Shown: positions 6,178 to 35,672, counted from the first letter of the stretch. The stretch: DNA of 40,869 bases from a virus (IMGVR_UViG_2541047754_000003); one strand, 5' to 3'. Translations and numbers: made by a program. The notes: generated from the letters alone by a model not told the origin.

Positions 6178-6192
6178 TTACCTTTCAGGTGA
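6178..6192. promoter_or_regulatory. Operator-like palindrome TTACC-N5-GGTGA (one mismatch to TTACC-N5-GGTAA)
   Basis: Sequence TTACCTTTCAGGTGA upstream of the LexA-box gene. Confidence 0.45.
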
Positions 6193-6229
6193 TTTGCAAA
6201 ACGTGCTGGATAGCAAACAAATTATTTGA

Positions 6230-6249
6230 TACTGTATATTTATACAGTT
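6230..6249. promoter_or_regulatory. LexA (SOS) box
   Basis: TACTGTATATTTATACAGTT, 18/20 match to consensus TACTGTATATATATACAGTA with perfect CTGT-N8-ACAG core, about 20 bp upstream of start codon at 6269. Confidence 0.7.
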
Positions 6250-6268
6250 ATTGCATGGAGAAGATAAG

Positions 6269-6526
6269 ATGCAGCAGTATCACTATCCACTGGAAGACGG
6301 ATTTACCGAAAGGATTCACACGCCGGGAGGCGTCAGGTCACTGGTGGAGGGATCGCACTTGATGAAATTACTCCGGGATCTCGATAAGGATGGATTTAAT
6401 GTCGATGGCCCACTTGCCGAACTGACTGCACTGATTAACTACGTCACCAGCTCACAGATGTCTATGCAGGATCTGCAAACACATCTCGACTATTGTGCCG
6501 AACAATTACGAAAACAAACCCGGTAA
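6269..6526 (+). CDS. Small protein homologous to the C-terminal domain of the neighbouring antirepressor; SOS-regulated antirepressor candidate
   Basis: ATG 6269 with GGAG 8 nt upstream; about 45 percent identity by eye to C-terminus of the 7672-8358 product (shared IH.P.GV..L.E.S.LM.LL..L..DG..V.G..AEL...Y...Q.L.DLQTH..Y). Confidence 0.6.
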   Translation: MQQYHYPLEDGFTERIHTPGGVRSLVEGSHLMKLLRDLDKDGFNVDGPLAELTALINYVTSSQMSMQDLQTHLDYCAEQLRKQTR

Positions 6527-6560
6527 ATTTAAAGGCCGCAAGAGCGGCCTATCGTTTCGC
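6525..6560. terminator. Bidirectional intrinsic terminator between convergent genes
   Basis: Hairpin GGCCGC-AAGA-GCGGCC flanked by AAATTTAAA on one side and T-rich tract on the other. Confidence 0.5.
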
Positions 6561-7277
6561 TTTGTGCTCATCCCAGCACGTTTTGCACCATGCCATTAAG
6601 CCGTCCGCATTTTGATTATTAGGGTAAAAGCTGGTTCGTTTTCTGCGGACATTACAAATTGGGCACCACTTCATATGGCGTGTATTCTTTGGGCCATCGA
6701 GACACCTTGCACACCACTTAGTCAATCCATCTGGATTTTTTGACGATTTCCTGAATTTTTCATATGGAAGGTTTATTCTGCATCGCAAGCACTGCTTGCT
6801 ACCACTTGAAACTCTGTTAGCTGATTCTTCTTTTGGCGGCGATGCAGAAGGTATTCTTGCTGGCTCTGATACTGCCTGAGGTGCTTTTTTAGATGACTGA
6901 GACGATATGTCATCACCAGGGAATCTTCCATGATATGCCGGACGCGTTGACACTCCAGGTGGAAGCTCAGCTGTAAACGGCTTTGGCTGAATCAGTTGCC
7001 TCTCTTTTGCTAACTCCTGCTGTTTATAATATGTCTGGATTACCGCACTATCATAAGCAGGAGGTGCGGAAATATTAGGCGCATTACCTCCAGTTTTTTG
7101 AAACTGAGTAGAGGTGTGTTCTATCACCTGTGTACGATTAATCGTTATCTCCCCATCTTCGGTCTTTATCGTTTTGTTATGATTAACGACCGTACGATCA
7201 GAGATCTTAGTCTTGTTCTGGTTGATAACGTAAATAATCACCGCAACCACACCAACAACTATCCAGAAAACTTCCAT
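6549..7277 (-). CDS. Membrane-anchored protein with two C-terminal Cys4 zinc-ribbon modules; function unknown
   Basis: ATG 7277 with GAGGA RBS; N-terminal TM helix; Pro/Ser-rich linker; two C-x2-C...W-C-x2-C modules. Confidence 0.6.
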   Translation of the reverse strand: MEVFWIVVGVVAVIIYVINQNKTKISDRTVVNHNKTIKTEDGEITINRTQVIEHTSTQFQKTGGNAPNISAPPAYDSAVIQTYYKQQELAKERQLIQPKPFTAELPPGVSTRPAYHGRFPGDDISSQSSKKAPQAVSEPARIPSASPPKEESANRVSSGSKQCLRCRINLPYEKFRKSSKNPDGLTKWCARCLDGPKNTRHMKWCPICNVRRKRTSFYPNNQNADGLMAWCKTCWDEHKAKR

Positions 7278-7297
7278 TGCTTTTCCTCACAATAACA

Positions 7298-7312
7298 TTA
7301 CCTTAAAGGTAA
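7298..7312. promoter_or_regulatory. Operator palindrome TTACC-N5-GGTAA
   Basis: TTACCTTAAAGGTAA, perfect arms, between divergent genes 6549-7277 and ant. Confidence 0.6.
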
Positions 7313-7361
7313 TATCTTGCTTTCAGGTGATCAAGCGTTAAACGCAATCAACCAAATACGG

Positions 7362-7405
7362 TTGATTTTAATATTTCTTCGCGTTTATCATTACCTTTGC
7401 GGTAA
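7362..7405 (+). promoter_or_regulatory. Putative ant promoter (-35 TTGATT, -10 TATCAT) overlapped by operator TTACCTTTGCGGTAA (7391-7405)
   Basis: Sigma70-like hexamers with 18-bp spacer; perfect operator palindrome overlapping -10/+1. Confidence 0.5.
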
Positions 7406-7496
7406 ATTTACATCGCACTCCTCTTGTGCCATAGTAATCGGGCACTGGATTTTGCCAGTGCCGGGATTGGCGTCCCGGGTTACTACAGAGGCACAT

Positions 7497-7518
7497 ATGC
7501 CGCATAAGCGGTTTTTTT
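7497..7518 (+). terminator. Weak intrinsic terminator or attenuator in the ant leader
   Basis: Short GC stem (GCCGC/GCGGT) with loop ATAA followed by seven T; preceded by two stable hairpins at 7442-7478. Confidence 0.35.
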
Positions 7519-7671
7519 ATGTGTAAAGCGCACCTATTCTATGGTGGGCTGTGTGGGGGCACCGAAAGGTGCGCCGGGTCCTTTGTAGCCGGTTACGCCA
7601 ACCCTGCACAGTTCACCACCAACCGATTGGCGTCGGTAGTGGTGATTAACCTAACTACAAAGGTGATCACT

Positions 7672-34418: not shown

Positions 34419-34498
34419 GGTAAGCCCTGTTATTAGTATTGGGATTACGGTTATTTTGTGCTGACACAAAAAAAAGATCAACCAGATTTGGTTTTTTA

Positions 34499-34513
34499 TT
34501 ACCTTTGAGGTAC
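34499..34513. promoter_or_regulatory. Operator-like palindrome TTACC-N5-GGTAC (one mismatch)
   Basis: TTACCTTTGAGGTAC between cro terminator and the small Cys/His gene. Confidence 0.45.
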
Positions 34514-34520
34514 GAATAGA

Positions 34521-34546
34521 TATGAAAAGACCGCCGGGTGGCGGTC
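34521..34546 (-). terminator. Rho-independent terminator downstream of cro (tR1-like)
   Basis: 7-bp stem GACCGCC/GGCGGTC followed by TCTTTTCA on the minus strand. Confidence 0.5.
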
Positions 34547-34568
34547 TACAGAGGGTTGTAGCTGGATA

Positions 34569-34799
34569 TCATGAGTAGAAGAAGTATGCCAGTTCTGCTT
34601 TTGAGCGCAGCCATTGTCTTGTTTTACAGGCTTTAAAAAGCCCATTCATCAATACTTTACCTGGCATTTTGCGCTTACCTGTTAAGTGAGTCTGGATATA
34701 GTGACTCGTCGTTCCGGCTTCCTGTGCGAAGGCTTCACGCTCATCCGGAGTAAGTGCAAGCCAGTGCTTTTTGAAATCGAAATGTCCGTTATCGCTCAT
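34569..34799 (-). CDS. Cro-like HTH regulator (YdaS/Cro family)
   Basis: 76 aa; divergent from repressor gene across operator region; motif LTPDEREAFAQEAGTTSHYIQ resembles Cro/YdaS-type HTH. Confidence 0.7.
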   Translation of the reverse strand: MSDNGHFDFKKHWLALTPDEREAFAQEAGTTSHYIQTHLTGKRKMPGKVLMNGLFKACKTRQWLRSKAELAYFFYS

Positions 34800-34835
34800 A
34801 GCTATTGCCTGATATTTATTTCAGATAATAAATAT

Positions 34836-34898
34836 TCACCCATAAGGTAACAAAAATCAAGGATAGTTACCTATGAGGTGCATTTACCTGTTGGGTAA
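34836..34898. promoter_or_regulatory. Tripartite operator (OR-like) between cro-like and repressor genes
   Basis: TCACCCATAAGGTAA (34836-34850), TTACCTATGAGGTGC (34867-34881), TTACCTGTTGGGTAA (34884-34898); first site lies between candidate -35/-10 of the leftward promoter. Confidence 0.7.
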
Positions 34899-34953
34899 TA
34901 TTGCTTTAAATTGAATCATCTACTGATTCATATATGAGACGATTTTCCAGAAA

Positions 34954-35538
34954 ATGAAAAGTATCCAGGACGTCCGCAGGCAAAATCTCAACGACTTGAT
35001 CGACCGTGAATTCAATGGTGTTCAGACGCGGATGGCAGAAAAACTTGGAACTCAGGCAAATCTGGTAAACCGCTGGGCTCTTGGCAAGAAGGTTATCGGC
35101 GACCAGGTTGCGCGAAAAATTGAAGCTGCCGCCAATAAACCACGTAACTGGCTTGATATCGATCGCTCGCTTTCTCAGGAGGGTTTTCAGCCTGTCGGAC
35201 CAAGCGACATTGGTCAGCTGGCGGCTCACAACCTGGAACGCTGGATGAGCGAAAGCCGCGACCTTTCAACACAAGGAAAACTTCACCGCGCATCCGGCGT
35301 CGCCCAGGTGACAATCAGCCGCCTGTTAAACAATGAAGTCAGCGTTTCCATTTCCACCCTGGAGAATGTTGCATCCGCATTCGGGCGTCACGGCTATGAA
35401 TTACTGATTCACCCGCACGACCCTGCGACCATCAACTATGACCGCTCGCGCTACGCATTGTTACCCGAAACCGAGAAAGCAAAGATCGAAAGTTACATTG
35501 AATTTGTCATCAACCAGAACGAAAAAAATAAACAATAA
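34954..35538 (+). CDS. Prophage repressor with two XRE-type HTH domains and no S24 peptidase domain
   Basis: 194 aa; HTH-like segments at N-terminus (TQANLVNRWALGKKVIGDQVARKIE) and mid-protein (SGVAQVTISRLLNNEVSVSISTLENVA); no Ser-Lys LexA-like cleavage module; almost leaderless start. Confidence 0.75.
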   Translation: MKSIQDVRRQNLNDLIDREFNGVQTRMAEKLGTQANLVNRWALGKKVIGDQVARKIEAAANKPRNWLDIDRSLSQEGFQPVGPSDIGQLAAHNLERWMSESRDLSTQGKLHRASGVAQVTISRLLNNEVSVSISTLENVASAFGRHGYELLIHPHDPATINYDRSRYALLPETEKAKIESYIEFVINQNEKNKQ

Positions 35539-35556
35539 AACTATAGTTTTCAGCAA

Positions 35557-35583
35557 GTAAGCCGCCTCATGGCGGCTTTTTTA
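35557..35583 (+). terminator. Rho-independent terminator after repressor gene
   Basis: Stem GCCGCC/GGCGGC, loop TCAT, followed by TTTTTT. Confidence 0.65.
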
Positions 35584-35595
35584 TTGCCATCAAGA

Positions 35596-35672
35596 TTACC
35601 TTATGGGTAATTTTTTTAACTCATATCTATTGACATCAAACCAAATACGCATAATCATTACCTCAACGGTAA
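35596..35672 (+). promoter_or_regulatory. Rightward early promoter (PL-like) flanked by two operators
   Basis: -35 TTGACA (35630-35635), -10 ATAATC (about 35651-35656); operators TTACCTTATGGGTAA (35596-35610) and TTACCTCAACGGTAA (35658-35672). Confidence 0.6.

Follow-up and report, generated by a model that had tools for sequence, protein, structure and literature searches.

One palindrome as the putative repressor operator of early, middle, late and accessory promoters in a Uetakevirus prophage

Several temperate phages are known in which a single repressor acts at many places along the genome. In phage P1 the dispersed operators number more than twelve; through them one immunity repressor, C1, directly controls many separate operons, with an antirepressor system taking part. 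In phiC31, conserved 17-bp inverted repeats are the repressor sites over distant intergenic regions. SPbeta, with its repressor SroF, also has multiple repressor sites over distant intergenic regions. In L5, a cluster A mycobacteriophage, the sites are named stoperators: they are asymmetric 13-mers, their orientation is tied to that of transcription, and the repressor, a monomer with two domains (a helix-turn-helix, HTH, and a stoperator domain), blocks elongation. We describe here a 15-bp palindrome, TTACC-N5-GGTAA, that recurs between the transcription units of a prophage contained in the stretch IMGVR_UViG_2541047754_000003 (40,869 nucleotides; 'the window', below, means the whole of it). 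We think it likely that these palindromes are the operators of a repressor, Rep, of the type described in phage SPC32H, which would directly gate each transcription unit, mostly by promoter occlusion, and would be released by an antirepressor, Ant.

The nearest precedent comes from the same group of phages. The record of epsilon15 (AY150271.2) has seven protein_bind features labelled 'repressor / lysogeny', the sequences of which are those of the same palindrome (ATTACC-N5-GGTAAT). One is placed upstream of terS, one upstream of gp3/portal and one between the tailspike gene and gp19 (the ant homolog); three are in the left operator region (OL), and the last precedes a RuvC-like gene that lies after the replication genes. 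The motif is identical in the present prophage and the positions match (terS, gp3/portal, ant-tailspike, OL, post-replication). The idea that late and middle units of these phages are touched by the repressor thus predates our analysis. A text search of the literature, with the primary epsilon15 and SPC32H papers outside its scope, did not find the motif. An earlier note on this DNA had regarded such an architecture as unusual, a view that has to be abandoned, the epsilon15 record having annotated sites already and multi-operator repressors being known (P1 C1, L5, phiC31, SPbeta SroF). The system is therefore of a known, already annotated kind; what is added is the full list of sites, their geometry relative to promoters, their footprint across the genus and the promoters of cargo slots. 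Indeed, the epsilon15 record annotates seven of 15 matches and omits the cluster between rep and cro (the right operator region, OR), the int site and the lysis site. Compared with epsilon15, the present prophage has additional accessory operators (7298 and 8432), has lost the site upstream of the lysis genes, and encodes a repressor with 42% identity to its counterpart.

Likeness to the other systems is more limited. The operators of P1 are asymmetric 17-mers, the sequence of C1 is unrelated, and P1 is a plasmid prophage; phiC31 and SPbeta differ by proteins, motifs and hosts, all unrelated to those discussed here. With L5 the prophage would share many repressor sites in short intergenic spaces, and silencing that extends past the early promoters. 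However, the L5 sites are 13 bp long, asymmetric, oriented and read by a monomer, whereas here they are palindromic, hence without orientation, most of them overlap predicted core promoters, and Rep is homologous to an unrelated, tetrameric protein. Because the site is palindromic and the protein an unrelated tetramer, this is not a stoperator system, and the term 'stoperator-like', which the earlier note had used, is not retained. As in lambda, putative operators are found on both sides of the repressor gene, over predicted divergent promoters of the PR/PRM type and over PL, with three OR sites; the differences from lambda are that a RecA-type cleavage domain is missing, that about ten operators lie outside the immunity region, and that pairs of operators bracket promoters at a distance of 62 bp.

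For the proteins, the reference is SPC32H. Papers that cite the original work describe its Rep as a tetramer on palindromic DNA, the DNA-binding pairs being drawn from different dimers, and state that a tetrameric Ant removes Rep from DNA (papers citing Kim and Ryu, 2013; Kim et al., 2016). The C-terminal domain of Rep has a looping-type tetramerisation fold. SPC32H, as these citing papers describe it, and the present prophage share homologous Rep and Ant proteins, control of ant by LexA and a non-cleavable Rep, and would share a tetramer acting on palindromic DNA; the genome-wide set of operators and the promoter geometry were derived here, in silico only. A repressor identical to the present Rep is found in phage ZX5, where its overexpression lowers holin and endolysin transcripts by more than 99.9%; the corresponding experimental paper defines no operators.

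In the prophage, the palindrome is present in ten perfect copies where 0.05 would be expected, and in 15 copies with at most one mismatch where the expectation is 0.60, neither count being reached by any of 100 shuffled sequences. Restricted to non-coding DNA, the ten perfect copies compare with 0.006 expected, and an unbiased count of all palindromes of the 5-Nk-5 form puts TTACC-N5-GGTAA first by a wide margin. Perfect copies begin at positions 7298, 7391, 8432, 25538, 28749, 32491, 32553, 34884, 35596 and 35658, and intergenic copies with one mismatch at 6178, 28731, 34499 and 34836. The shuffle comparison thus upholds the enrichment that had been proposed for the repeated palindrome, and the coordinates first given for it were all correct, with the qualification that the third site between rep and cro (34867) carries two mismatches. 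Just past the end of the window (~40912–40926 in window numbering), upstream of int, there is a sixteenth site, TTACCTTAAAGGTAT, which is kept in 6/6 genomes of the comparison set described below.

As for location, non-coding DNA makes up 7.85% of the prophage and contains 14 of the 15 sites (binomial P = 4.7e-15), once the start of terS has been corrected. In the RefSeq gene map, sites 28731 and 28749 belong to the terS coding sequence, with a TTG start at 28809, which requires reading through a terminator hairpin (28783–28800) and through both operators. The start equivalent to that of epsilon15 is an ATG at 28728 (MPAEP...), directly 3' of both sites. The RefSeq start is almost certainly wrong, and with the ATG at 28728 both sites become intergenic. 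The earlier statement that no copy was to be found inside coding sequence consequently holds for the terS pair and for every other site but one, at 2949 in the holin gene. This last match is outside the operator set, and its number agrees with chance expectation.

Homologs of Rep in phage records form four clades, from E. coli (98–100% identity), Enterobacter (75–78%), Klebsiella (45%) and Salmonella (42%). Our comparison set comprised one genome per clade, together with phiV10 and SPC32H, that is, six genomes from four host genera. TTACC-N5-GGTAA is the top palindrome in all six, with 8–11 perfect copies (10 in SPC32H) at equivalent positions. When sites are aligned on their centres over the four clades, invariant columns make up 59 of 60 in the half-sites, 11 of 30 in the central N5 and 305 of 792 (39%) in the flanks: this is the footprint that a dimeric DNA-binding unit would leave, and not that of an RNA stem. 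The same pattern bears upon a very improbable alternative, namely that the palindrome would have nothing to do with a phage regulator, and would instead be bound by a host factor, serve as a signal in restriction/modification or recombination, or form a hairpin in RNA. The palindromes do fold as RNA (-3.5 to -5.8 kcal/mol, z -1 to -3.3), but these stabilities are modest and typical of any palindrome, and the hairpin reading was rejected on account of these energies and of half-sites that are invariant, with no compensatory changes. In favour of a signal of another kind, one breakpoint of homology between phages coincides exactly with an operator edge (8447 in the window). Yet depletion, and not concentration at promoters, is what restriction targets would show, and the clustering around rep and cro, reminiscent of OL and OR, implicates the immunity proteins, as the epsilon15 annotators had also concluded.

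The one plausible reader of the motif is the immunity repressor, probably together with the Cro-like protein, because the palindrome brackets rep and cro in the manner of OL and OR, and because both the half-sites and the predicted recognition helix of Rep (NLVNRW) are invariant, the latter although overall identity between repressors is only 42–45%. We thus infer that Rep binds the sites from its homology and from their placement. Rep is a full-length homolog of SPC32H Rep (PDB 5D50_A, E = 4e-42, residues 1–190 aligned), and 5D50 and 5D4Z are its only matches among solved structures. The layout known from the SPC32H literature gives it an N-terminal HTH DNA-binding domain, a middle domain resembling a second HTH_3, and a C-terminal domain for oligomerisation and Ant binding; Pfam returned HTH families only, with no match to the Peptidase_S24 self-cleavage domain. 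The product of the gene at 6269–6526 (+; 85 residues), Ant, is a close homolog of the SPC32H antirepressor (5D50_E, E = 4e-47, residues 2–84), and a perfect LexA box, TACTGTATATTTATACAGT, lies over its promoter at 6230–6248, 21 bp before the ATG. This LexA-box gene is therefore the real antirepressor gene; in the earlier note the sites at 7298 and 7391 had been assigned to an 'ant region', but the gene meant there is the BRO-N gene. The Cro-like protein belongs to PHROG 35 ('transcriptional repressor'), and its HTH segment AGTTSHYIQxHLT is invariant across the genus.

The two partners are not equally close to their SPC32H counterparts. Ant is far nearer to SPC32H Ant (few substitutions over 83 residues) than Rep is to SPC32H Rep (42% identity), and the low identity extends to the C-terminal domain of Rep, the Ant-binding part according to the citing papers. 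This mismatch may result from mosaic exchange or from a relaxed specificity between Rep and Ant.

We now come to the organization of the prophage. The window is identical, in reverse reading, to a region of E. coli strain 85.0412 (NZ_CP122448.1), going from yfgH/yfgI through the prophage to the integrase gene that adjoins guaA. Sited at guaA, the prophage is a podovirus of the phiV10/epsilon15 type, genus Uetakevirus. Downstream of rep (34954–35538, +), and likewise on the plus strand, come the early-left recombination and methylase genes, in an operon that also encodes PerC- and AlpA-type regulators. The cro-like gene (34569–34799, -) heads a long minus-strand series, which continues with replication genes, a nin-like region, terS and terL, the structural genes from portal to tail, the tail fibre and the lysis genes, and which is broken by a few plus-strand units.

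Promoters of the sigma-70 type were scored around every site in all genomes with a simple weight model, and only geometries conserved among clades were retained (Table 1). Nine predicted promoters are overlapped by an operator: PL, PR, the int promoter (Pint), the terS promoter (PterS), that of the tRNA/cargo unit, that of the post-replication unit, and three accessory promoters. At these core promoters the operator centres span -25 to +18, and at PL, PterS, 8432 and 7391 the -10 hexamer is fused to the operator (..AT/TACC, the slash marking the junction). At PL it is the left edge of the proximal operator that makes the fusion (AATCAT/TACC), in a geometry kept in 6/6 genomes, while at PterS the centres are at ~0 to +1 (28749) and +18 (28731). 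The post-replication promoter (TTGAww-17/18-TwwAwT), conserved in 6/6 genomes, has its two operators at -62 and ~+1; the operator at 32491 precedes the ATG of a DUF1064/resolvase-like gene (32143–32487). Another candidate promoter there, TCGATA-16-TAAAAT, proposed by a consensus tool and having operator 32553 in its spacer, was found only in some genomes and is kept as an alternative. Operator–promoter geometry is conserved across clades, and the same order recurs, with a terminator, then one or more operators with a promoter, then the next transcription unit. Around rep itself, three operators (one degenerate) are on the OR side and two on the OL side.

Table 1. Putative operators, predicted promoters and the coding-sequence match, in window numbering
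Feature	Coordinates	Strand	Match to TTACC-N5-GGTAA	Position and context
OL proximal operator	35658–35672		perfect	centre ~0 to +1 of PL
PL (predicted)	35630–35658	+		TTGACA-17-AATCAT; promoter of early-left (recombination/methylase) operon
OL distal operator	35596–35610		perfect	62 bp upstream of proximal operator, centre to centre; directly after rep terminator
OR operator nearest rep	34884–34898		perfect	17 bp from middle operator
OR middle operator	34867–34881		2 mismatches	TTACCTATGAGGTGC
OR operator nearest cro	34836–34850		1 mismatch	in PR spacer, centre ~-25
PR (predicted)	34825–34853	-		TTGTTA-17-TATTAT; promoter of cro-like gene
Single operator, post-cro	34499–34513		1 mismatch	directly after cro terminator (34528–34547)
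Post-replication upstream operator	32553–32567		perfect	centre ~-62 from conserved predicted promoter 32505–32533
Post-replication downstream operator	32491–32505		perfect	centre ~0 to +1; ends 3 bp before ATG
terS operator 1	28749–28763		perfect	fused to extended -10 TGgTACTAT (28763–28771), after terminator 28783–28800
terS operator 2	28731–28745		1 mismatch	18 bp from operator 1; abuts terS ATG 28728
Single operator, tRNA/cargo	25538–25552		perfect	overlaps -10 of TTGACA-17-TACCTT (25516–25544, +); centre -6
Accessory operator	8432–8446		perfect	fused to -10 of TTGCAG-17-TACTAT (8404–8432, +); centre 0
Accessory operator	7391–7405		perfect	fused to -10 of TTGATT-18-TATCAT (7362–7391, +); centre 0; toward BRO-N gene
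Accessory operator	7298–7312		perfect	overlaps -10 of TTGATC-17-TACCTT (7306–7334, -); centre -6; before gene 6549–7277
Single operator	6178–6192		1 mismatch	between two divergent predicted promoters (tail fibre, ant)
Pint operator	outside window			in spacer of predicted int promoter GTGACG-15/17; centre ~-18
Chance match	2949–2963		1 mismatch	in holin gene; CTACCGCAGAGGTAA; absent from phiV10 and epsilon15

Centres that range from -25 to +18, often with a fused -10, imply repression by promoter occlusion. The genome would be split into about ten short units, each placed after an intrinsic terminator and having its own promoter, and Rep would keep each of these promoters off directly in the lysogen, in place of the two operators and the antitermination cascades of lambda; the Cro-like protein would probably read the same OR sites. 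The operator pairs that bracket PL and the post-replication promoter are 62 bp apart, exactly so in six genomes with one 63-bp case (the offset of the OL pair is -62 or -63 in 6/6). The distance is about six helical turns, and a single Rep tetramer, having two DNA-binding units, could hold both sites of a pair, clamping them and looping the promoter between them. At induction, Ant, controlled by LexA, would strip Rep off all the sites at once. The positions support the earlier proposal that one palindrome marks OL, OR and the late (terS, portal/tail), middle (post-cro, post-replication), integrase and accessory promoters. With the homology of Rep, they also support in substance the idea that one repressor contacts many promoters, while its novelty and the analogy with stoperators are lost.

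Bound Rep could act in another way at the distal sites. It may be, though we find it rather unlikely, that these are mainly roadblocks against read-through, stoperators in function, and not blocks to initiation. Sites come directly after terminators (34499 after that of cro, 35596 after that of rep, 28749 and 28731 after the hairpin 28783–28800), others lie against start codons (3 bp before the ATG for 32491, directly at that of terS for 28731), and with the whole lytic genome on one strand read-through is a real risk. But the very same sites coincide with conserved promoter elements, with the -10 fused at terS, PL, 8432 and 7391, and, being palindromes, they are devoid of the orientation dependence which defines stoperators. 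Roadblocking and promoter occlusion are not mutually exclusive, and the former is possible at some sites.

There remain single sites, 57–70 bp upstream of promoters. Operator 34499 is centred ~-60 from the predicted promoter of the replication (post-cro) unit, TTGATC-17-CAAAAT (34453–34481). Operator 6178 has its centre ~-70 from a promoter-like block of the tail fibre gene, TCCATA-17-TAGAAT (6122–6150, -), and ~-57 from the ant promoter, TGGATA-17-TACTGT (6207–6235, +), and operator 25538 is also ~58–70 bp upstream of a promoter-like block of gp3/portal. A lysis promoter with a single operator at ~-70 is present in relatives only (in phiV10, TTAACC-17-TATAAT). Near these single operators (-57 to -70), no degenerate partner site is conserved, in a background where a 15-mer with up to three mismatches is met about once per 220 bp. 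If Rep gates the units directly, the single sites that precede the promoters of the tail, lysis, post-cro and ant units would be auxiliary.

Alternatively, these sites might be class I-type activator sites for another phage protein, the Cro-like protein being the first candidate, in which case one motif would serve repression and, during lytic growth, late activation. This seems to us distinctly improbable. In its favour, the sites keep fixed offsets, about -60 to -70, from promoter-like blocks that are conserved (post-cro, tail, lysis), despite diverged intervening sequence; they have no partner operator; and the HTH of the Cro-like protein does not vary within the genus. Neither a Q-like antiterminator nor a late activator can be recognised, and a conserved -35/spacer element of an unusual kind, CATATrTGGTT, is common to the late promoter-like blocks. 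Against these features stands the purely positional nature of an argument built on predicted promoters; furthermore, a strong divergent promoter has its -10 within the portal-region site, whose presence is thereby accounted for without activation, and late activation could equally well be the work of the PerC- and AlpA-type regulators of the early-left operon, at other sequences.

The element itself is found at 25486–25496 (-), 6138–6148 (-) and 32511–32521 (-), as well as in the lysis-upstream regions of relatives, and is followed about 7 bp further on by -10 elements resembling GGTAAT or TATAAT. It lies 30–45 bp downstream of the operators that precede the gp3/portal, tail fibre and lysis genes (the last in relatives), at a fixed distance from the operator despite divergent sequence in between. 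A first pattern, ATRTGGTT-N8-TA, gave no matches, and the block was redefined as CATATrTGGTT. It looks like a common -35/spacer element of late promoters, possibly an activator site. Of the operator that phiV10, epsilon15, SPC32H and Tyrion have before their lysis genes, only a right half-site (gaGGTAActatt) is left here, in the region 3132–3172 (-). This half-site adjoins a partly kept promoter-like block, and the loss coincides with a different 3' end of the tail fibre gene.

Several observations weigh against the proposal that Rep directly gates each unit, mostly by occlusion. The promoters are predictions from a simple weight model, and a 2023 paper calls the mode of gene repression of this Rep not 'extensively characterized'. 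Sites at -57 to -70 without a nearby partner do not fit simple occlusion. In phiV10, epsilon15 and SPC32H a site overlaps the spacer of the promoter of the lysogenic-conversion genes, which is awkward for a pure repressor, conversion genes being expected to be on in lysogens. The Cro-like protein is at least as well conserved as Rep, both having invariant HTH helices, so that conservation cannot assign the sites to Rep alone. Finally, the motif is the same in Rep clades of 42–100% identity and, since it never varies, a test of covariation between repressor and operator is impossible.

A bolder scheme would have the roughly 16 operators and the two-headed Rep tetramers form one network, bridging the 62-bp pairs and the orphan sites over kilobases, with the orphan -60/-70 sites re-used after induction by the Cro-like protein as activator sites of late promoters. 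We give it little credence; were it true, a single invariant palindrome would carry the silencing of the whole genome as well as the late-gene switch that is missing throughout the genus.

The accessory units show what the operators may mean for cargo. The predicted promoter at 25516–25544 (+), strong and conserved in the genus, reads toward the gene at 26150–26572 and toward a tRNA-Arg (anticodon TCT; 25875–25951, +), located in the divergent unit behind the operator-overlapped TTGACA-17-TACCTT. With an operator over the promoter of its unit, this tRNA is predicted to be under the control of the repressor. The promoter–operator at 8432 precedes an open reading frame (8507–8686) and the YafO toxin gene. 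The unit that contains it (8370–8447) is kept in other Uetakeviruses, homology ending exactly at the outer edge of the operator, and the cargo beyond differs: a YafO toxin pair here and in TL-2011b, a small unrelated open reading frame in phiv142-3. Promoter–operator units thus seem to act as module boundaries. Operator 7391 has equivalents in phiV10 (20497), Tyrion and Klebsiella phage BUCT711. The gene behind operator 7298 (6549–7277, -) is shared only with TL-2011b among phage records; it belongs to PHROG 6762, and the C-terminal part of its product matches endonuclease VII, HNH and Lar-like zinc-finger families.

E. coli (O157:H7 included) and Salmonella commonly harbour phages of the phiV10/epsilon15 type, which serve as reporter and typing phages. 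If one repressor gates every unit, Ant alone suffices for induction. With cargo slots placed behind promoters of the Rep type, one would predict the YafO toxin pair, the BRO-N gene and the endonuclease-like gene to stay off in the lysogen and to be turned on at induction, the opposite of what is usually expected of morons. The genus may, on the same premise, share one operator specificity over four host genera despite repressors with 42% identity, which bears on cross-immunity. The map of sites is a ready design for chromatin immunoprecipitation (ChIP) or reporter work on a repressor whose structure is solved and whose function is under-characterised.

Further features of the prophage were noticed on the way. 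A second palindrome, GTGACATGTCAC, has three perfect copies (9293–9304, 26577–26588 and 28842–28853), and with one mismatch allowed there are four matches against 0.08 expected, the fourth (23487–23498) being in coding sequence. Each perfect copy lies where a minus-strand operon ends on its 3' side – one follows the last structural gene, one terL and one the last early gene – and 0–40 nt from intrinsic terminators, and the palindrome is found at the same three positions in phiV10, epsilon15, SPC32H, Tyrion and Klebsiella BUCT711. A regulator of termination or antitermination, or a regulator of another kind, could act at it, and it also reads as back-to-back hexamers resembling -35 elements. 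The tail fibre gene is given by RefSeq as a partial pseudogene (3599–6073), yet an intact open reading frame of 918 amino acids is present at 3317–6073. Inside the DnaT-like replication gene, at 33799–33951, there are six tandem units of 18–24 bp (ATCCCGTTTTTGGGATCATTCAAC and variants), which are probably origin iterons, as in lambda O.

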